The notes under the pieces were generated by a model that searched no databases, was not told where the DNA came from, and worked only from the letters and a program-made list of their open reading frames with translations. Both the position numbers and the translations under genes were made by a program. From assembly GCA_947494155.1 (NCBI GenBank), contig CANLTW010000007.1, positions 1 to 64,000 on the forward strand: a stretch of DNA of 64,000 nucleotides, read 5' to 3'. Source of the stretch: Chlamydiota bacterium (GTDB lineage Bacteria; Chlamydiota; Chlamydiia; Chlamydiales; RGXB01). Numbering within the stretch: position 1 is the first letter of the stretch; each line of letters begins with the position of its first letter. Positions 49,032 through 58,341 of the stretch are shown in pieces.

Positions 49032-51416
49032 TTAAGGACAGCTAAAAAGTTTGGAGGCTAAAAGGATCTGTAAAGCCCCTTTTTCAGTGAGGCTCCAGTC
49101 GTTTTCTTCATCCCAAAATTCGATGAGCTCTTTACCTTCGGACAGCCCGTTCAGGGCATGAAAAAGGGCGTTTTTCTCCTTTGCATCAAGACCTTTATAC
49201 CCTTGCACAAGGGTATGGAGCAGATCTTCAGTGGAAAATTGCGAAAAAAACCTCTTCAAAAGCTCTTGGGGGGTGTACTGCAAGATCTTTTTGATCAATA
49301 CCCCGGTAAAGGGATCGAATTGTACTGTATGTGATAAACCAAGGAAACGGGCGATACGGTTTTTCACATAAAGGACATGATGAGGGAGCTCGGAGACTTT
49401 GTGAAATACTTTAGGTCTCAATAGCTCTTTGATCCAATTATGATTTTCCAACCCTTTTTCAAAATAGGGAGATAAGCACGCTTCCAGAAAATTATCCAAA
49501 GGCGCTTCTAGAAATTCCCCTTTATGCCTTTTTTGGAACTGTTGGGGCAAATATCGGTAGGCTTGCGAAATACCAAATTTTTTCCCTTCAGAACAGTTAT
49601 TTATACAAGCCGAAATCTCCATCAAAGCCCGATCAAACAAAGATAGCGCCCCTGGTGAGCTTGATTCCCGTTCCAGCGTTTCTAGCCAAAGGATGATTTG
49701 AAACAGTTTGACAACATAGGAGGGGACTTGGTGCTGATTTTTTTTCGAGGTCGAGAGAGTTAGCTCAAAAAAAGGATCTGTAAGATTCGCCTTAAGCTGG
49801 GAAAAGTTAAGTCCTGTCAGCGTATGGATTTCGTCAAGAAGGGACTGTTTGTCTTTTGAAGAAAGCTCATCTAACCTTGTCGCCAAAATTCCCACTTTAT
49901 CGGTAAAATAGCTTGGAGCAATCGTACTGGGTAATTGGGCAGAGCTAACGAGTGTTTGTCGCATTTTTTCAAGCCCCTCGCTCGGGAGGAAAAAAATCTT
50001 GTCTTTTGACCCGGCAATAGGGATCGGGGGGATGAAAGGGGGTGCTTTTGCAAGCTGTTGGTGCTCGCTGTAAATTCTATAGGGGTTAAGAACGTTTTGT
50101 TGGGTAATCTCATTAAGCTGGGTGATTTGTAGCGCTTTCGAGAATAATGGGCTCTCCTCATCAATCCCCAGGCTCACGTGTTGGTCCAAAATGAAATAGG
50201 CAACTTCAAGCACATCTTCGAGATTCTGCTCATGCTCATTAAGGTACTCCTGAAAAAAAGAGAGATGCAGCTGGCCGAATAAGGGGTGCTCATCGATTTT
50301 TAAAAGGTAGTCCACCCCTTCCATAAAACGGGGGCGTATGTTGTTTAGATAAGAGCTTATTTCCACTAGGGTTTGGGGTTGGCTACGCGGTTGTAGCCAT
50401 TGGCAAAAAGCTTGCAAATCTAAAGTTTTGTATTGCAAAAGCATCTTGATAAAATACACAGGATCCAAAGCCCCCTCTAGATGAAAAAATGGGGTAAGGA
50501 TGGAGCATATAGCCTCCAGTTTATCTGCGGGAGCTTTGAGCAGTAGAAGATAAAACTTCCCTTTTTCTGTTGTTTGGATGTGCTCTTTGAAAAAGGATAG
50601 GTGGTCAAACTTTTTGAGTGTATTGAGGCAACTGTCGTTTAAAATTGCTTGAAGCAGATCCGATTGGTTCGAAGAGTCCACCTCGTTTAAAAGACTGCAA
50701 GTAGTAGCGCAAAAACGTTGTCTATGCTCTTGAGGTAATAAATGCACCCCTTGAATAAGAGTAATACGATCCTTTAGATCCATATCGCTATGCATCAGAT
50801 GTTTTGCTAAAGTAAGAACCTCTTCATTTACGTCTGTTTTAAACTCCTGCAGTTTATCAATCAGTTCCACTTGTAAAATGGAGCTGTCTTTTCCCGAAGT
50901 GAATGGGAAAGCCTGCTTAAGGAAAATGCGCCGCTTGTCGGGGGGGAGACGTTCAACGCCGTTGATCAAGTGGCACTTGTCTTGAAAGCTTTTCAGCTGT
51001 TCTAGAAAGGGTTTGATATCGAGAATAAAAGGGATCTGATCTGAAACAGATATTTTCGAAAGCATGGAAAGGATTTTCGACCTTTGAGCCACATCTTTCA
51101 CATCTTTTAGAAAAGGGGCTGTGATTTGTGAAATCGTCGATAGCTGGTCTCTTGGAAAAAGTTGTGCGATTTTTAAAATTTTCCAATGGTGTTTTTTTTG
51201 TATCCCATTAGTCAAACGGGAAAAACTCTCTTGAAAATCGTTGTGCAAGGGGGAACAAAGAGGATCATACTCCTCATGAAGATGGTTTGTATCTAAACCG
51301 ACATCGTTATCAACAACTTGGGTTTGCTCTGCGTTAACCCTGCTAGGGGGCTCTTGGTCGACAGGGGGCTGGATTGCCTCTAGAAATCGGGTGGGGGTGT
51401 TGCTCTTAATGATCAT
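49032..51416 (-). CDS. Large hypothetical protein with 35-aa helical repeats (effector candidate)
   Basis: 794 aa; disordered N-terminus; about 8 degenerate 34-35-aa repeats; TTGCAT-N17-TAAACT-N6-ATG upstream. Confidence 0.7.
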   Translation of the reverse strand: MIIKSNTPTRFLEAIQPPVDQEPPSRVNAEQTQVVDNDVGLDTNHLHEEYDPLCSPLHNDFQESFSRLTNGIQKKHHWKILKIAQLFPRDQLSTISQITAPFLKDVKDVAQRSKILSMLSKISVSDQIPFILDIKPFLEQLKSFQDKCHLINGVERLPPDKRRIFLKQAFPFTSGKDSSILQVELIDKLQEFKTDVNEEVLTLAKHLMHSDMDLKDRITLIQGVHLLPQEHRQRFCATTCSLLNEVDSSNQSDLLQAILNDSCLNTLKKFDHLSFFKEHIQTTEKGKFYLLLLKAPADKLEAICSILTPFFHLEGALDPVYFIKMLLQYKTLDLQAFCQWLQPRSQPQTLVEISSYLNNIRPRFMEGVDYLLKIDEHPLFGQLHLSFFQEYLNEHEQNLEDVLEVAYFILDQHVSLGIDEESPLFSKALQITQLNEITQQNVLNPYRIYSEHQQLAKAPPFIPPIPIAGSKDKIFFLPSEGLEKMRQTLVSSAQLPSTIAPSYFTDKVGILATRLDELSSKDKQSLLDEIHTLTGLNFSQLKANLTDPFFELTLSTSKKNQHQVPSYVVKLFQIILWLETLERESSSPGALSLFDRALMEISACINNCSEGKKFGISQAYRYLPQQFQKRHKGEFLEAPLDNFLEACLSPYFEKGLENHNWIKELLRPKVFHKVSELPHHVLYVKNRIARFLGLSHTVQFDPFTGVLIKKILQYTPQELLKRFFSQFSTEDLLHTLVQGYKGLDAKEKNALFHALNGLSEGKELIEFWDEENDWSLTEKGALQILLASKLFSCP

Positions 51417-52297: not shown

Positions 52298-52377
52298 TCT
52301 TTCATCATAAAGGGAAAACACTGATTTAAAAAAAGTTTTTTTGTACCATGATCCAAAATCATTTTTCAGGACAAAAC

Positions 52378-53574
52378 ATGAAAAATTTAGCTCAATTGTT
52401 TTTATTAATAGGGATCTTATTTTCACTAGAATCGACTGAAAGAAAAAAAATTGTTCTGAATATGATTTTAAAGAATGAAGAAAAAGTGATGGAAAGATCT
52501 CTCGGATCGGTCAAAGAGTTTATCGACTACTGGGTGATTGTCGATACGGGCTCCACCGATAAAACAATCGAAGTGATCCAAAAATTTTTCAAAGATAAAC
52601 CCGGGGAGTTGCACCAAAGACCTTGGGTCGATTTTGCCTATAACCGGCAAGAGGCGTTAGAGCTTGCCAAATCCAAAGGGGATTATATCCTATTCATGGA
52701 TGCCGATGATACCCTCACATTTGAGGAGGGGTTTGAACTGCCTGAGCTCAAACTCGATTTTTACGGAATTTTCAATAAAACGGCCCAGCAGCAATGGCTT
52801 ATACCCCGCCTGGTGAATGCCAAATTGCCCTGGAAATGGTTGGGCGTACTGCATGAATATATATGTTGCGACTTCCCAACAAGCGGAGATGTATTAAAGA
52901 AAATTTCTTACAATTATCTTGGGGGGGGAGCCAGATCTCAAGATCCTCTCAGGATTGAAAAAGATATTCAGGTGCTCAAGTCGGGTCTTGTCAAAGAGCC
53001 ACAAAATCGCAGATACCTCTACTATCTTGCCACGACCTGTGAAACGGGGAGAAGATGGGAGGAGGCGCTCAGTTGGTTCAAACAAAGAGCTCTTTATCCC
53101 CATGAGGGGGATCCCGATGAGGTGTTTTTGTCCCTGTATGGTATCGCAAGGTTGTACCAGCAATTGCATATGGATGAGAATCTGATCTTATCCAGCTTCA
53201 TGGAAGCTTATGCGTTTTTACCCACCCGAATCGAGCCGTTGTTTTATATTTTGCATATTTTATTGAATCAAAATCGGCTGGATGAGGGATACGATTTGGC
53301 CACAAAGGCGCTACTGCTGCCAAAGAGGGGAAATTTCCAGCTTACAGACCACTGGATAGAGGACTATGGAATTTTGGCAATTTACGCAGAAATCTGCTGT
53401 AAAAAAGGGTTGTTGAAGGAGTCTTTATGGGCGATGCAAGACCTTTTGGCTATAGAAAATCTGCCCGAGAGTTTACGTTCACAGGTGCAAGCGATGCGTA
53501 AACAAATTTTGGAAGTGAAAACGAAAGACATACAGGAACCGATCCTCGAAAAATTAAAAAAAATAATAGACTAG
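52378..53574 (+). CDS. GT2 glycosyltransferase with C-terminal TPR
   Basis: LNMILKNEE, IVDTGSTD, DFAYNR, MDADD, W.GVLHE; N-terminal hydrophobic segment. Confidence 0.9.
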   Translation: MKNLAQLFLLIGILFSLESTERKKIVLNMILKNEEKVMERSLGSVKEFIDYWVIVDTGSTDKTIEVIQKFFKDKPGELHQRPWVDFAYNRQEALELAKSKGDYILFMDADDTLTFEEGFELPELKLDFYGIFNKTAQQQWLIPRLVNAKLPWKWLGVLHEYICCDFPTSGDVLKKISYNYLGGGARSQDPLRIEKDIQVLKSGLVKEPQNRRYLYYLATTCETGRRWEEALSWFKQRALYPHEGDPDEVFLSLYGIARLYQQLHMDENLILSSFMEAYAFLPTRIEPLFYILHILLNQNRLDEGYDLATKALLLPKRGNFQLTDHWIEDYGILAIYAEICCKKGLLKESLWAMQDLLAIENLPESLRSQVQAMRKQILEVKTKDIQEPILEKLKKIID

Positions 53575-53670
53575 CGGTTTGGGGAAAAAAATCCGAAAAG
53601 GTATTCTCTATGTAAGCGAGGTATAGCTCTATCCTCATAATCCTTGGGTATGCTATTCTCTATCTCTTTT

Positions 53671-54705
53671 ATGTACACCAAACAAGACCATTTTTTAGGG
53701 CAGCTACTCGCCGCATCGATAGAGCTGATGGTGGGGGCTAAGGCGCTCATTCCCCATGCAGGGGGGTGCCCCTACGGATTTTATGCAGATGTCTACGCCC
53801 CATTTCTTCTTGGGGAGGGATATTTCGAGCCACTCAAAGAGCACATGATCCGTTTTTGCCAAAGCGACAGGATTTCCACCTTTACTATGGAAAAAAAGAA
53901 TGCCGAGGCGTTTTTAGAGCATAAGGGGAAAAAAAGGCTCAAAAAAAAGCTTGAAGAGATTTTAGAGAACCAGGTTTGTCTTGTTCAGATCGAAGACAGC
54001 ATGTTTATTTCAAAAGATAAAGAGCCCTCATGGGAAAATCTAGGGGATTTTTCCATCGATAAAATGGAGCTTTTGGATCGGGGAGGGGTGCGATTTTTTG
54101 GAAAAAGAAAAGGGGTTGCGTCTCAACAGAATTTTCACCTTGCGGGGTTAGGTGCTTTTGGAGATTGGTACCAGCAGGAGTTTTTGTGGAACCGCAAAGG
54201 GATAATCCTCAAAAAAAGGTGGAGAGAACTATTCGAAAAATTCCTTGAAAAAGAGGGTTTTGAGTGGATTGATGTGGGCGCTTTATCAAAAGATACGTTT
54301 AAAAAGGTAAAGCACCTAGGTTTTTTAAAACCCGTTCATTGGGTTGAAGAGAATACACTAACGGAACAAGACCCTTTTTTTGGATGGAAAGGGCTCAACC
54401 AGCGCACCCAAGACCGCTTTTTTTATCTTGTTGAAAATCAGAATGTTCGAGAGGCGATGACTTCATGCTTGCGTTTGATTGAAAAATGGACTAAAATTCT
54501 CGGAATCCGTGGAAATTTCACCGATAGCGATAGAGGGAGAGTTTCCTGGATGGTTCAAGATCCGTTTGGTGCTACCTTTGAGGGGCCCTATGTGGAGCGC
54601 CACCCTAGTGGATGTTTGACCGGATCAATTATGGGCCCGTTAGAATTACTGATTGCAATCCATGCAGAGGAGAAGTTCACCTGGAATCTAGAGAATCAAG
54701 AATAA
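53671..54705 (+). CDS. Degenerate threonyl-tRNA-synthetase-like protein
   Basis: Collinear eroded ThrRS motifs (see findings); occupies the thrS position upstream of infC; ATG at 53671 (track start TTG 53644). Confidence 0.7.
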   Translation: MYTKQDHFLGQLLAASIELMVGAKALIPHAGGCPYGFYADVYAPFLLGEGYFEPLKEHMIRFCQSDRISTFTMEKKNAEAFLEHKGKKRLKKKLEEILENQVCLVQIEDSMFISKDKEPSWENLGDFSIDKMELLDRGGVRFFGKRKGVASQQNFHLAGLGAFGDWYQQEFLWNRKGIILKKRWRELFEKFLEKEGFEWIDVGALSKDTFKKVKHLGFLKPVHWVEENTLTEQDPFFGWKGLNQRTQDRFFYLVENQNVREAMTSCLRLIEKWTKILGIRGNFTDSDRGRVSWMVQDPFGATFEGPYVERHPSGCLTGSIMGPLELLIAIHAEEKFTWNLENQE

Positions 54706-55223
54706 ACGAGCAAATCCGCGTTTCACAAGTCCGCTTGATTGATGAACACGGCGAGCAGCTCGGAATTGTACCGACCTACGATGCTAGACGTCAGGCGCAG
54801 GAGAAAGGGCTCGATCTAGTTGAGATCGCCCCCCAAGCGCAGCCCCCTGTATGCAAGATCATGAACTACGGTAAATTCCGCTATTCAAAAGAGAAGCAAG
54901 AAAAAAAGAATCGGAAAGCGCAGATAAAAGTCAAAGAGCTGAAATTGCGCCCCGGTATTGCTGACAATGACATCATGATCAAAGTCTCTCATGCAAAAGA
55001 ATTTTTGTCAGAGGGGAACAAAGTCAAAGTTACCTGTATGTTCCGTGGCCGTGAAATGGCGCATACAGAAATCGGTGAAGCCGCTATGCAGCGCTTTGTC
55101 GATGAATTAAAAGATTTCGCAACGGTAGAAATACCGCCGAAAATGACGGGTAGGAGCTTATGCCTAGTGCTTGCGCCCGCAAAACAAACAAAAGGAGACG
55201 ACCGTGCCAAAAATGAAAACTAG
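54681..55223 (+). CDS. infC: Translation initiation factor IF-3 (probable CUG start)
   Basis: [37 protein letters not shown]. Confidence 0.95.
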
Positions 55224-55398
55224 GAAGGCATATGCCAAGCGTTTCAAATTGACCGCTACCGGTAAATTGAAGCGCACCAGACCAGGTAGAAGACACATTC
55301 TTACTAAGAAGTCCTCTAAACGCAAGAGATCTTTAGCGACACCTGCATTGGTGGATAAGGGTCAATTGAAGACATACAAAAAATTGATGTGCGTGTAG
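55204..55398 (+). CDS. rpmI: 50S ribosomal protein L35
   Basis: [28 protein letters not shown] start after AAGGAG. Confidence 0.97.
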
Positions 55399-55408
55399 GA
55401 GGGTACTA

Positions 55409-55768
55409 ATGAGAGCAACGAATGCTGTCTACAGCCGTAGACGTAAAAAACGCTTGTTAAAAGCTTGTAAGGGTTACTTCGGTGATCGTAAGAACCACTA
55501 CAGAAACGCGAAAAATGCACGCATGAAAGCGATGTATTACGCTTACCACCACCGCTTGATCAAGAAAAGATCTTTCCGCCGCCTTTGGATTGTACGTATC
55601 AATGTAGCAGCCCGTCTTTATGCCGGTCTTTCCTACTCTGCGTTCATCCATGGACTGAAGAAAGCTTCCATCGATTTAGACAGAAAAGTATTGGCTTTCC
55701 TCGCTGTTGAGGATCCACAGGCGTTCCAACAGATCGCACTGCAAGCTAAAGCTGCGCTAGTAGCTTAA
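55409..55768 (+). CDS. rplT: 50S ribosomal protein L20
   Basis: [26 protein letters not shown]. Confidence 0.97.
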
Positions 55769-55804
55769 ACTCGAGTTGTTTTTAACGAACGGAAATTTTT
55801 TCCT

Positions 55805-56836
55805 ATGATGACTGACAAACCCTTTGATCTTCACTCTTTAAAAAAAGAGTTTCACAAAAGACTTCACCAAGCCGAAAGCTTGGAGGGGTTAGAAGAGATA
55901 AGGGTTTGTTATTTTGGGAAAAAAGGGGTTATCCAGGATCTGATGGGAACCTTACGTTCTGCTCCTAAAGAGAAAATTCCCCAGCTCGGAAAAGAGATCA
56001 ATCTTTTCAAAGAAGAGCTTACCCAGGAGCTTGAAACCAAAAAACGAGATGTAGAAGAGCGTCTTCTTTCTTTAAGTATGGAAAAAGAAAAGTTTGACGT
56101 TACCCTTCCTGGTAGGTTCCGCCCAAGAGCGCATAGCCATCCAGTGCTCGATTTGATCGAGAAAATGACCGATATTCTCCGCTCGTTGGGTCTTAAAGAG
56201 GTCCATTCGAATGAGATTGAGGCAGAAGAGGTCAATTTTGATCTTTTAAATTTTCCGGCAGACCATCCGGCTAAAGACATGCAGGATACTTTTTATCTTA
56301 ATGACAGCATGCTTTTGAGAACCCATACGACAACTTTTCAAGTCCCTATGATGCGTCGAAGCCAACCTCCGATGGCCCTTTTTTGTGCCGGAAGGGTATT
56401 TCGGAACGAAGAGGTGACATCTAGATCCCATCAACAATTCAGTCAAATTGACGCCTTCCATTTAGGAAAAGGGGTGAGTTTGGCAGATTTGCACTCTCTA
56501 TTAAAGTTGTTTTATCGCCGATTATTTGGGGATAATGTGGTTTTAAGATGTAGAAAAAGCTACTTCCCATTTACTGAACCCAGTGTAGAAATTGATATCA
56601 GCTGTATCCGCTGTGGGCAAAAAGGGTGTCCTATTTGCAAGCATACCGGTTGGCTTGAAGTTGCAGGTGCAGGGATGATCCATCCAAATGTGATTCAAGC
56701 GGGTGGTCATGATCCTGAAATTTACACAGGCTGGGCATTTGGCATGGGAGTTGACCGCACCTTGATGCTTTATCATAACATCCCAGACATTCGGATGCTT
56801 TGGGAATCTGATGCCCGTTTCCTTCGACAATTTTAA
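55805..56836 (+). CDS. pheS: Phenylalanyl-tRNA synthetase alpha subunit
   Basis: HPAKDMQDTFY, LLRTHT, YFPFTEPS, GWLEVAGAGMIHP. Confidence 0.98.
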   Translation: MMTDKPFDLHSLKKEFHKRLHQAESLEGLEEIRVCYFGKKGVIQDLMGTLRSAPKEKIPQLGKEINLFKEELTQELETKKRDVEERLLSLSMEKEKFDVTLPGRFRPRAHSHPVLDLIEKMTDILRSLGLKEVHSNEIEAEEVNFDLLNFPADHPAKDMQDTFYLNDSMLLRTHTTTFQVPMMRRSQPPMALFCAGRVFRNEEVTSRSHQQFSQIDAFHLGKGVSLADLHSLLKLFYRRLFGDNVVLRCRKSYFPFTEPSVEIDISCIRCGQKGCPICKHTGWLEVAGAGMIHPNVIQAGGHDPEIYTGWAFGMGVDRTLMLYHNIPDIRMLWESDARFLRQF

Positions 56837-56863: not shown

Positions 56864-57769
56864 TCAACCCCAGATCAATCTGTGTCGCACAGGATCGAAG
56901 GCTTTATTTGAGGCCTCGATTTGGATATTGTGAGACTCCTGACCCTCTCTAAAGTCGATAGTTTCACAATAGTGGTAAAGAGGGATAGGCATGTCAGCCG
57001 GCTCTTTTTTGACGGGTGTCACAAGAACATATTCCGATTCTTTTTCAATGCTAACACCATTTTGGTACACGTGCCATTTTACAATGCACAGATGGGGTAA
57101 GTCGCTCAATACTTTTTGGGGCGGACTTGCAAGATCTAGAACATGGATCACGTTTTCTTCCCCATCGGGATTAACAGCCATATGGGCAAACGAGGAGATT
57201 AAAGAGTTTGAGAGAAGCTCGAGCCTATCGACCGGATTGGGTATTTGCTTTAAAAGATTTAAAAGCATCTCTTGAGAAAATATTTCGTGTTCATTGATTT
57301 GAAGCGCTAAAAACCCTTTTTGAACCCTGTAAAGCACCTCATTAATCAGATCGATTTCATTTTGACCGAAGGGGAGGGGGTTGACCTGAAAATAGGGCTC
57401 CTCTTGCTCTTTTTTTAGCGCTGCAGGTTCTTGAGTGTGTACCTCATTTCCGAAAATATCTTTCAACACCTCTTGCACCTGATTTTTGAATTCCTCCTCT
57501 TCCTTTAAAGACATAGGGGGGGTGGGGTGCGTGTTTGAGGGGTGTTTAGGCATAGAATTTTCCCTTTCAAGGGCCCTTTGTTCGTGCTTAAAGCCCTCTT
57601 TAAGGTGGGGGTTGGGTATGTTGTTTTTTTGTAAAATACCTAAAGAAACTTGAGAACCTTTCGACGAAAGTTTCGTAATAACAGATTCCTTTGAAAGTAG
57701 TTGAAAGCGATTTTGCCCCTCTGGAGGGTACTTTTCGGGTGGTTGAGGGAGATTGGGGTTGATTTCCAT
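56864..57769 (-). CDS. Hypothetical protein (Pro-rich N-terminus)
   Basis: 301-aa ORF; no recognised motif. Confidence 0.65.
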   Translation of the reverse strand: MEINPNLPQPPEKYPPEGQNRFQLLSKESVITKLSSKGSQVSLGILQKNNIPNPHLKEGFKHEQRALERENSMPKHPSNTHPTPPMSLKEEEEFKNQVQEVLKDIFGNEVHTQEPAALKKEQEEPYFQVNPLPFGQNEIDLINEVLYRVQKGFLALQINEHEIFSQEMLLNLLKQIPNPVDRLELLSNSLISSFAHMAVNPDGEENVIHVLDLASPPQKVLSDLPHLCIVKWHVYQNGVSIEKESEYVLVTPVKKEPADMPIPLYHYCETIDFREGQESHNIQIEASNKAFDPVRHRLIWG

Positions 57770-57774
57770 AGATG

Positions 57775-58341
57775 TTAACCTGTTCCTTTAATTTCTATCG
57801 AGCTCGGATTAGTAGGAGAGCTAGCACTTGCTTTTATTGCTACAGCTATACGACGAAAAGAGGCGTTCTCCTCTTTTATTTTCCAATCGACTAGAACCGG
57901 TTTATGTAGGGTATGGTGCAGATTTTCTAAAGAGTACGATTCCATGTTGAGCGTTTGATCGTACGCGTCATAGAAAAAAGTGGCGTGTAAAACCGCCTCT
58001 TGTGTCTCTAAAGAAAAATTTTTGAAGGGCGATTTCATCAAATCCTCCACCTGTTGGCCATTCAGTTTTAAAACAATCGCTTTTGATTGGATCAATTGGT
58101 TAAGTATTTTGATTTGTTGCTCTAAAGGCAAGTGGGTCTGTTTCCCCCTAAGATCCTCTAAAATGCGTTTAAGAGCATTTTTATAGGTGAGGAGCTCTTT
58201 TTTTGACATTGTGCCGACTGAAGAATCCCTGATACTTGCAAGCAGATGGGTAGTTGGGTCAAAAGATTTAGCCTCTTTCGTTTTGGAAAAATGGGGTTCT
58301 TGAGGGGAGGGGCGGCCTCTTCTATCAATAGGTGCACTCAT
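57775..58341 (-). CDS. Hypothetical protein
   Basis: 188-aa ORF ending 5 nt before the next gene's start. Confidence 0.6.
   Translation of the reverse strand: MSAPIDRRGRPSPQEPHFSKTKEAKSFDPTTHLLASIRDSSVGTMSKKELLTYKNALKRILEDLRGKQTHLPLEQQIKILNQLIQSKAIVLKLNGQQVEDLMKSPFKNFSLETQEAVLHATFFYDAYDQTLNMESYSLENLHHTLHKPVLVDWKIKEENASFRRIAVAIKASASSPTNPSSIEIKGTG

Follow-up and report, generated by a model that had tools for sequence, protein, structure and literature searches.

What is the protein encoded by the open reading frame that stands just 5′ of infC in this freshwater chlamydia, and what keeps its gene there? In the window (the whole 64,000-nt stretch of DNA that was analysed), the frame occupies positions 53671–54705 of the + strand and is intact, with 344 codons plus TAA. 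The ORF listing gives a longer frame, 53644–54705, which begins at TTG; this start was rejected because every homologue begins at the Met of 53671, and ATG 53671 is the start common to all nine close homologues (344–356 aa, 51–100% identical). Frames are uninterrupted in 9/9 protein clusters and in the nine orthologous DNA copies read. Downstream, also on the + strand, lie infC, encoding IF3 (54681–55223; TIGR00168 E = 1.4e-63, with IF3_N and IF3_C; the 5′ limit is putative), rpmI, encoding L35 (55171–55398 as listed, the true start probably lying later), rplT, encoding L20 (55409–55768), and pheS (55805–56836 in the ORF listing, with a weak PF00587 match at C7:56309–56626); the rpmI and rplT translations were recognised by eye. 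The initial annotation had described an intact frame of about 344 aa, collinear with threonyl-tRNA synthetase (ThrRS), at the head of infC–rpmI–rplT–pheS. The gene order bears this out, and collinearity was recovered by MAFFT, hhalign and fold comparison.

Recognition of the relationship to ThrRS needed intermediates, profile–profile comparison or fold. The query alone had no ThrRS match in Pfam (no tRNA-synt_2b, no tRNA_SAD), NCBIfam or the PDB sequences, and a 9-row family profile had none in the PDB sequences. By BLASTP, residues 7–125 align with residues 69–180 of the genome's own ThrRS with 27% identity (as a one-pair comparison, E = 0.021). When the 9-row family was compared with a 13-row ThrRS profile in hhalign, 271 columns were collinear at E = 2.7e-5, with a probability of only 74.5%. 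The motif-by-motif correspondence drawn up in the initial annotation is reproduced in a MAFFT alignment of the query, 36 further paralogs and six chlamydial ThrRS. In this alignment HFLGQLLAASI is placed on HSSAHVLAQAI, PYGFYADV on EQGFYYDF, VRFFG on TRVYG, EWIDVGAL on motif 1 (IEIKTPIL), GWKGLNQRTQDRFFYL on motif 2 (GLFRVRSFVQDDAHIF), MVQDPFGATF on ILDALDRKW, and GSIMGPLELLIAI on motif 3 (GSIERFLGIM).

The AlphaFold2 model of the paralog (pLDDT 88.4, pTM 0.80) supplied the structural match to ThrRS that had been proposed as a check. The top Foldseek matches are full-length ThrRS (1qf6_A, E = 3.3e-15, followed by 6vu9 and 1nyq), and VIA-align superposes residues 3–335 of the model on residues 69–529 of 1qf6_A (Z 16.8, 323 aligned). 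The chain comprises an N2 (editing-type) domain remnant (53671–54114, +; residues 1–148), which aligns with residues 67–224 of the ThrRS editing domain 1tje (Z 16.3, 146 aligned, rmsd 3.1), and a class II catalytic-core remnant (54130–54678, +; residues 154–336), which aligns with residues 242–530 of the E. coli ThrRS core (Z 17.0, 183 aligned, rmsd 2.7). Taken by itself, the class II core matches those of ProRS, GlyRS and SerRS equally well (Z 16–18); both domains are matched by ThrRS chains only, N2 followed by core and collinear as in ThrRS. A sequence link to ThrRS is provided by more distant relatives of 410–584 aa that retain HGTP_anticodon. One of these, L026, also retains tRNA-synt_2b above the Pfam cut-off and is 35–38% identical to genuine ThrRS of several phyla. 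Descent of the paralog from ThrRS is virtually certain.

The descendant has neither a TGS domain nor an anticodon domain (no HGTP_anticodon match in Pfam), and the chain stops just past the motif 3 helix. At the editing site, HFLGQ keeps a single His of HxxxH and SMFISKDKE replaces FFDLCRGPH, so that HxxxH and DxCRGPH are both lost. The threonine-site zinc ligands, which we take to be the Cys of KPMNCP, the His of QDDAH and the His of HRA, are gone as well: the KPMNCP loop is deleted, DRFFYL stands at QDDAHIF and GCLTGS at HRAILGS. The ATP-binding arginines of motifs 2 and 3 are replaced (GWKGLNQ for GLFRVRS; PLELL for SIERF), and PLEL is found at the motif 3 IER(F) throughout the query clade. 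Across the paralogs, in every row covering the column, HxxxH has lost its first His or both, and DxCRGPH is missing; the Zn-Cys loop is deleted in all rows except L026, in which Ala replaces Cys and which alone keeps the RxR of motif 2. Most paralogs of other families keep the motif 3 arginine and the anticodon-binding domain and lack the Zn site. The Pfam scan and the alignment therefore confirm the earlier remark that the editing, Zn, arginine, TGS and anticodon features are absent; judged by these residues, the protein very probably has no catalytic activity.

Threonyl-tRNA synthesis falls to a second, full-length thrS. As the initial annotation had anticipated, it lies elsewhere in the same genome, on contig C1, and encodes 638 aa with tRNA_SAD, tRNA-synt_2b and HGTP_anticodon; copies 96–97% identical to it are present in three genomes of the same genus. 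Dead ThrRS paralogs form a series across the order, from about 340 to about 610 aa, at whose most reduced end stands the gene in the window; 29 related loci carry open frames of 344–606 aa. In the tree, 32 paralogs fall on one side of a branch, apart from genuine ThrRS (SH-aLRT 100), the support being provisional as the tree was built by a quick method, is unrooted and drew long-branch warnings. By this tree the anticodon domain was seemingly lost several times, in the query clade and in at least two others. A profile tally of 301/301 genomes mixes in genuine ThrRS (E 1e-17 to 1e-21) and is not a count of paralogs; among the rows listed, those with E ≤ 5.4e-34, which alone are safely paralogs, have open frames of 195–613 aa and cover roughly half of the genomes (an approximate figure). 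The Chlamydiaceae-like genomes examined have lost the paralog entirely: it is absent from all four in which the infC neighbourhood was read, where a spacer of 300–470 nt and a divergent gene stand upstream of infC. Some longer relatives are annotated as threonine-tRNA ligase by their sources, though the Zn site is missing. No description of a dead ThrRS paralog in chlamydiae was found in the literature outside subscription journals.

Selection on the gene was measured by the Nei–Gojobori method for five orthologues (10 pairs), 55–75% identical as proteins. Whole-gene dN/dS is 0.11–0.24 for the paralog and 0.013–0.024 for genuine ThrRS from these same genomes, a difference of roughly ten times; dN is 0.18–0.28 and 0.024–0.032, respectively, between the same genomes, giving the paralog a non-synonymous rate 6–12 times that of genuine ThrRS. 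Selection on the paralog is thus purifying but relaxed by comparison with genuine ThrRS. The ratios are well below 1 and the orthologues are intact, as opposed to the near-neutral ratio or broken orthologues for which a check had been suggested. Synonymous sites are saturated over codons 1–264 (pS 0.67–0.87), and over codons 285–324 the protein is near-invariant while third positions are free (pN 0–0.10, pS 0.22–0.89). We are confident that the paralog is selected at the protein level. Its fast change, variable length, domain losses and absence from the Chlamydiaceae-like genomes together resemble gradual decay more than the fixation of a new function.

Two short blocks of the gene behave differently, their DNA being near-invariant among the five orthologues even at synonymous sites. 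Block 1 (54466–54522, +; pS 0–0.08) encodes CLRLIEKWTKILGIRGNFT, and block 2 (54643–54728, +; pS 0–0.28) spans the last 21 codons of the paralog and the first codons of infC. Block 2 contains AGGAG (54668–54672, +), a Shine–Dalgarno candidate for infC, 8 nt before CTG (54681–54683, +), which is in the infC frame and is a candidate non-AUG start. Other families have TTG or CTG as the infC start, 7–9 nt past a purine-rich site. An ATG at 54612 was rejected as the infC start, since the N-terminal extension that it would give infC is not conserved in that frame and the ATG is missing from two orthologues. The overlap with infC stated in the initial annotation exists, but with CTG 54681 as the infC start it measures about 25 nt and not the 94 nt counted from ATG 54612. 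Gene order and junction are also conserved. infC lies directly 3′ of the paralog in 29/30 related loci, the exception being a contig-end fragment, and in 24/28 loci the paralog stop is found −3 to +7 nt from the codon for the Ile of INxxIR, a motif of IF3; in 7 of those 24 a TGA stop lies inside the TTGA of an infC TTG start. At the window's own locus the offset is +3, the TAA stop (54703–54705, +) overlapping the infC Ile codon ATA (54702–54704).

Block 1 holds a candidate promoter, TTGCGT–17 nt–TAAAAT (54469–54497, +), a lead read from the alignment that agrees with the sigma-70 consensus at 8/12 positions but at just 3/6 in the −35 hexamer. A consensus promoter and terminator scan of 53400–55000 did not list this site and found no terminator; it returned two promoter-like sites, both on the minus strand, where 2.1 were expected. 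Contigs from RNA libraries start at 54515–54517 (+) in three of the four runs (54517 in X16, 54516 in X17, which has an adapter-like loose end, and 54515 in X18), where an infC transcript may have its 5′ end. X15, the fourth run, has a contig covering 54313–54672 that passes straight through these positions, and the starts lie 18–20 nt past the −10 hexamer of the candidate promoter rather than the usual 7. The starts could be assembly breaks, given that position 54546, exactly 30 nt 3′ of 54516, differs between strains, and as a sign of a transcript end they offer a weak hint. Parts of the ORF are uncovered by these contigs, but such gaps tell nothing about expression; contig depth cannot rank genes and may include DNA carry-over. 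A search of 53500–55900 against Rfam at a permissive E-value gave three chance-level matches only, with no L20-leader or other family. A 13-bp hairpin is predicted at about 54505–54551, and RNAalifold over 54499–54740 in the five orthologues gave no support for a conserved structure (compensatory change in 3/68 pairs, covariation term +0.6). Taken from sequence conservation, blocks 1 and 2 are probably infC expression signals; part of the C-terminal invariance of the paralog would then be a nucleotide-level constraint from embedded infC signals.

The gene, a ThrRS descendant in the thrS slot of thrS–infC–rpmI–rplT, is without TGS and anticodon-binding domains and very probably without aminoacylation or editing activity; we propose that two things keep it. 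In cis, the last third of the ORF would be the expression platform of infC. Block 1 may act as an internal promoter or 5′-end determinant, like the infC promoters inside E. coli thrS, and block 2 would supply the ribosome-binding site and the non-AUG (CTG) start. Because the paralog stop lies inside the first infC codons, ribosomes finishing the paralog could be passed to a weak infC start; we give such translational coupling an even chance. In trans, purifying selection on the two-domain protein (N2-like plus class II core) points to a non-catalytic role, our best guess being that it would bind RNA or protein of the translation apparatus, and a specific role in translation control is doubtful. 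That the cis platform and a non-catalytic trans role together keep the gene is the explanation we modestly favour.

It is improbable, by comparison, that the protein is idle and the gene a relic kept for its cis signals alone, its frame held open and foldable for ribosome delivery to a weak infC start and for the infC promoter and leader, with amino-acid selection merely avoiding toxic misfolding. The freezing of synonymous sites in two blocks, the stop–start overlap in 24/28 loci, the raised non-synonymous rate, the variable length with repeated domain loss, and the disappearance of the gene from the Chlamydiaceae-like genomes examined would all follow. Yet coupling requires an open frame near the end alone, not 344 conserved codons. 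The low dN/dS takes in the first 264 codons, far from infC and with saturated synonymous sites; a 40-codon stretch is near-invariant as protein while its third positions vary; the length of 344–356 aa is kept in 9/9 close homologues; and the fold is predicted with confidence. Neutral drift of a pseudogene that happens to be open, which the loss of all catalytic motifs and the fast evolution might suggest, is far less probable still, in view of the intact clusters and DNA copies (9/9 each), the dN/dS of 0.11–0.24 and the open frames in 29 related loci. A second active ThrRS or a free-standing editing factor is the least probable reading of all. In its favour is the threonine-tRNA ligase label that sources give some longer relatives; against it, the alignment shows loss or replacement at each of the three Zn-ligand positions, at both arginines and at the editing His/Cys motifs, and the query has no anticodon domain and no Pfam synthetase match.

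The initial annotation had proposed a factor acting in trans, a repurposed RNA-binding, ribosome-associated or operon-regulatory protein. The purifying selection seen at the protein level and the constant linkage to translation genes agree with this, as does the retention of the anticodon-binding domain and motif 3 arginine without the Zn site in most other-family paralogs, a combination that fits RNA binding without catalysis. One form of such a factor would be a repressor recognising a tRNA-like fold in the infC–rpmI–rplT or thrS mRNA; E. coli ThrRS represses via the tRNA-like fold of its own leader. The anticodon domain, however, was lost in the query clade and, by the tree, in at least two others, structured RNA beside the gene was searched for and none was detected, and the Chlamydiaceae-like genomes examined do without the gene, so that we consider this proposal unlikely. 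Similarly unlikely is a dedicated regulator that would be made in step with IF3 by stop–start coupling, bind RNA or protein of the translation apparatus, and adjust, in environmental chlamydiae, how much initiation factor or ThrRS is available. Targets named for such a regulator are tRNA(Thr), the thrS or infC–rpmI–rplT leader, ThrRS itself and the ribosome. A complex prediction of the query with the genome's own ThrRS core (residues 236–530) gave 'no answer' (score 0.00), which weighs on neither side. Our preferred reading remains the combination of infC platform and non-catalytic protein.

Bacterial ThrRS is one of the closest known systems. The E. coli (1qf6) and S. aureus (1nyq) enzymes have the same body of N2 editing-type domain and class II core in the same order, and graded intermediates link the paralog to them; TGS-less ThrRS forms of about 560–590 aa also exist. 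The paralog differs in having no TGS domain, anticodon domain, Zn site, motif 2 and 3 arginines or editing residues, and is about half as long. E. coli thrS occupies the same chromosomal slot before infC, and the E. coli infC promoters P0 and P0′ sit within thrS, according to one study (PMC6511841). Conserved nucleotide elements likewise lie in the upstream coding sequence here, and the start codon of infC is apparently not AUG; in contrast to E. coli, the chlamydial host gene is no longer an enzyme, and the promoter assignment is only a candidate. E. coli IF3 autoregulates through its AUU start codon.

Other non-enzymes derived from synthetases are HisZ (HisRS-like), mL39 (ThrRS-like), the HisRS-like domain of GCN2 and the GlyRS-like accessory subunit of DNA polymerase gamma; in all of them, as in the paralog, the class II scaffold outlives aminoacylation. 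The ribosome-bound mL39 consists of TGS and an N2-like ThrRS N-terminal part without the catalytic core, whereas the paralog has N2 and core without TGS, the two architectures having been set apart by inspection. The partner and function of HisZ are known. AlaX and ThrRS-ed share the ThrRS editing-domain fold with the N-terminal 148 residues of the paralog, which differs from them in having no metal-binding/catalytic HxxxH and CxxxH and in carrying an attached class II core.

HisZ and mL39 are textbook examples of enzymes that were given new tasks; to our knowledge few synthetase-derived non-enzymes are known in bacteria. The chlamydial series runs from a 584-aa form, 35–38% identical to real ThrRS, to a 344-aa form beyond recognition by sequence search, and presents the stepwise decay of an essential enzyme gene once a second copy takes over, the relic probably being held by the signals of a downstream essential gene within its coding sequence and by residual selection on the protein. 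It also carries a warning for annotation, as longer members are called threonine-tRNA ligase despite the missing Zn site. If a regulatory role is true, it would be a new link between a synthetase and the control of translation initiation; and if the protein is a regulator, the paralogs would represent a regulatory family, undescribed so far and spread over the whole order, that arose from the original thrS gene.

The ThrRS-derived paralog occupies positions 53671–54705 of the forward strand as an uninterrupted ORF of 344 codons. It is followed on the same strand by infC (TIGR00168, E = 1.4e-63), then by the rpmI and rplT ORFs, recognised by eye, and, next in operon order, by pheS. Upstream lies a gene for a family 2 glycosyltransferase of 408 aa that contains TPR repeats (52348–53574, forward strand), for which the top NCBIfam match is a SunS-type peptide S-glycosyltransferase model far below its cut-off (E = 2.4e-12; 46 bits against 350). 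On either side of the operon, at 49032–51416 and 56864–58341, are large reverse-strand ORFs (794, 301 and 188 aa). Public data hold nine protein clusters of 344–356 aa with 51–100% identity to the query; they are named hypothetical throughout by their sources (one is from 'Chlamydiia bacterium'), and all begin at the Met corresponding to 53671.

Used by itself, the query gave no ThrRS match in Pfam, in NCBIfam or among PDB sequences, and a profile of the nine-homologue family gave none among PDB sequences either. Descent from ThrRS is supported by four independent lines. An exhaustive HMMER search yielded 11 relatives, three of which (410, 432 and 512 aa) retain both the linker that follows motif 3 in ThrRS and a Pfam HGTP_anticodon domain; a further one, of 393 aa, has a weak tRNA_SAD match. 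Other chlamydial families carry a longer gene at this position, mostly 480–540 aa with HGTP_anticodon, and the least decayed paralog (L026, 584 aa) exceeds the Pfam cut-off for tRNA-synt_2b besides HGTP_anticodon and shares 35–38% identity with genuine ThrRS from Thermodesulfobacteriota, Armatimonadota and Acidobacteria, among others. With hhalign, the nine close homologues alone matched a 13-row ThrRS profile over 271 collinear columns (probability 74.5%, E = 2.7e-5), and BLASTP placed query residues 7–125 on residues 69–180 of the same genome's ThrRS (E = 0.021). Finally, the AlphaFold2 model of the query (pLDDT 88.4, pTM 0.80) had full-length ThrRS (1qf6_A) as its top Foldseek match (E = 3.3e-15). 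In VIA-align, model residues 1–148 matched 1tje, the editing domain of ThrRS (Z 16.3, r.m.s.d. 3.1, 146 aligned), and residues 154–336 matched the ThrRS core (Z 17.0, r.m.s.d. 2.7, 183 aligned). The query core alone placed ThrRS level with the ProRS, GlyRS and SerRS cores (Z 16–18); both domains were covered by ThrRS chains only (1qf6_A, Z 16.8, model residues 3–335 on chain residues 69–529).

The query was aligned with 36 paralogs and six chlamydial ThrRS; the catalytic, editing and zinc roles of the aligned residues are those of the ThrRS literature. A single His is left of the editing HxxxH motif, DxCRGPH is absent and the KPMNCP loop has been deleted together with its zinc cysteine. At motif 2, GWKGLNQRTQDRFFYL stands in place of the ThrRS GLFRVRSFVQDDAHIF, with loss of the zinc histidine and of the two arginines; the HRA histidine is replaced by Gly and the motif 3 arginine by Leu. 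The query has neither a TGS nor an anticodon domain. All three zinc-ligand positions are already substituted in L026. A 638-aa ThrRS carrying all three Pfam domains is encoded on contig C1 of the same genome and is the working enzyme. We regard both the ThrRS ancestry of the paralog and its loss of catalytic function as established. With the ancestral zinc ligands gone, Cys33, His156, Cys266, His311, Cys315 and His331 are invariant across the nine close homologues and could form a new metal or redox site.

The family profile matched 301 of the 301 genomes searched in the phylum, all of one order, a count that includes genuine ThrRS (E = 1e-17 to 1e-21). Matches listed at E = 5.4e-34 or better are paralogs; these open frames of 195–613 aa are spread over about half of the genomes. 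infC lies directly 3′ of the paralog in 29 of 30 fetched loci, the remaining one being a contig-end fragment. Three Chlamydiaceae-like genomes (G009, G018 and G028) and G086 gave genuine ThrRS only in the profile search. In the former three and a fourth genome of that family (G050), a 300–470-nt empty spacer and then a divergently transcribed small gene precede infC; a murB-like frame also flanks this slot. In G086, an unrelated same-strand frame of 240 aa lies ahead of infC. The relic therefore can vanish altogether, and has been deleted in the four Chlamydiaceae-like genomes read. A fast maximum-likelihood analysis of 50 rows, which gave an unrooted tree with long-branch warnings, places the whole set of 32 paralogs to one side of a single branch (SH-aLRT 100). 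The chlamydial ThrRS, six in number, group as a clade (100) amid 12 ThrRS of other phyla, and the least decayed paralogs sit closest to the enzymes. This topology is compatible with a single origin but does not indicate the original copy; together with the domain content of the relatives it implies that the anticodon domain was lost independently three or more times. Sources annotate longer members as threonine–tRNA ligase and short ones as hypothetical. For paralogs of 570–584 aa without any of the zinc-ligand residues (L026, P0036 and P0062), the ligase label probably marks a mis-annotated dead copy. A full-text literature search found no paper on such a chlamydial ThrRS paralog.

At the DNA level, two blocks of the ORF, 54466–54522 and 54643–54728, are near-invariant, third codon positions included. 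Block 2 contains AGGAG (54668–54672) followed 8 nt on by CTG in the infC frame (54681), which seems to be the infC start, and extends into the first conserved IF3 codons. ATG 54612 was rejected as an ORF-calling artefact: residues vary freely in its frame and two orthologues lack it. A conserved nine-codon mini-frame (ATG CAG AGG ... TAG, 54662–54691) lies in the third frame of block 2 and overlaps the Shine–Dalgarno candidate; its conservation is shared by all of the surrounding sequence. Non-AUG starts seem to be used in other chlamydial families also, mostly TTG AGA ATT AAT, or CTG, 7–9 nt past a purine-rich site (L009–L035). At 24 of 28 loci the paralog stop falls between −3 and +7 nt relative to the Ile codon in the INxxIR motif of IF3, and at seven of those 24 a TGA sits inside the TTGA of a TTG start; the remaining four loci have gaps of 10–73 nt. 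The arrangement is as expected for translational coupling. In the window, TAA (54703–54705) overlaps the infC Ile codon, and in orthologues with ATC instead of ATA the frame reads on for 11 further codons, so infC codon choice fixes the exact C terminus of the paralog.

Block 1 contains a candidate promoter (TTGCGT, 17 nt, TAAAAT; 54469–54497) with three of six consensus matches in its −35 hexamer; a consensus promoter scan did not list it. In E. coli, thrS contains two infC promoters (PMC6511841), and by this analogy we read block 1, on limited support, as a probable internal promoter or 5′-end determinant. Neither an Rfam search nor covariation analysis supported a structured leader. A predicted 13-bp hairpin (54505–54551; one compensatory pair among five sequences) lies just 3′ of the candidate −10 hexamer and spans the RNA-contig starts. 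Six lake metatranscriptome runs, whose study codes may share one campaign, contain 41–48% of sampled words, and contigs (rather than reads, and possibly including DNA) from four were placed on the window. Contigs start at 54517 in X16, at 54515 in X18 and at 54516 in X17, where they follow 22 letters recognisable as the tail of an Illumina adapter; they are deeper than the low-depth upstream pieces (53471–53691, 53706–54044, 53932–54144 and 54224–54390). An X15 contig (54313–54672) crosses these positions unbroken, and strains differ at position 54546, which is 30 nt 3′ of 54516 and could break 31-mer assembly exactly at the contig starts. The starts lie 18–20 nt past the −10 hexamer, so they may mark a processing site rather than transcription initiation, and are a weak hint of an infC transcript 5′ end. 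One X18 contig, which has the same adapter-like loose end, starts within infC at 55057, and depth in X16 and X17 peaks over the rpmI start (55182–55343); a second 5′ end or processing site may precede rpmI–rplT.

Nei–Gojobori counts were made for the ten pairs of five codon-aligned orthologues (the window and four metagenome loci, with protein identities of 75, 65, 61 and 55%). dN/dS over the whole gene is 0.11–0.24, and the relic is thus under purifying selection. Codons 1–264 have saturated pS (0.67–0.87) and pN of 0.17–0.44; pS drops to 0–0.08 in block 1 (codons 266–284) and 0–0.28 in block 2 (codons 325–344). Codons 285–324 combine pN of 0–0.10 with pS of 0.22–0.89, which marks a stretch of protein under strong constraint. 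For genuine ThrRS within the genus, dN is 0.024–0.032 between the window's genome and its relatives (dN/dS 0.013–0.024 over all pairs); the relic has 0.18–0.28 between corresponding genomes, a non-synonymous rate 6–12 times that of its parent enzyme.

The variable length of the family, repeated loss of the anticodon domain, fast evolution and outright loss in some lineages argue that any protein role is weak or dispensable. A relic kept for its cis signals alone, its protein merely harmless, therefore stays a serious rival, improbable as we judge it; codon statistics show that selection acts on the protein itself, in a putative non-catalytic role. That this role is regulatory or RNA-binding, as the initial annotation proposed, is a putative reading that we hold equally doubtful. 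The frozen blocks are probably infC cis signals, and for coupling of paralog translation to infC the chances appear about even. We propose that the last third of the paralog would carry cis signals of the essential infC, in the two blocks and the stop–start overlap, and that the gene would be kept by two overlapping constraints, these signals and selection on its protein.
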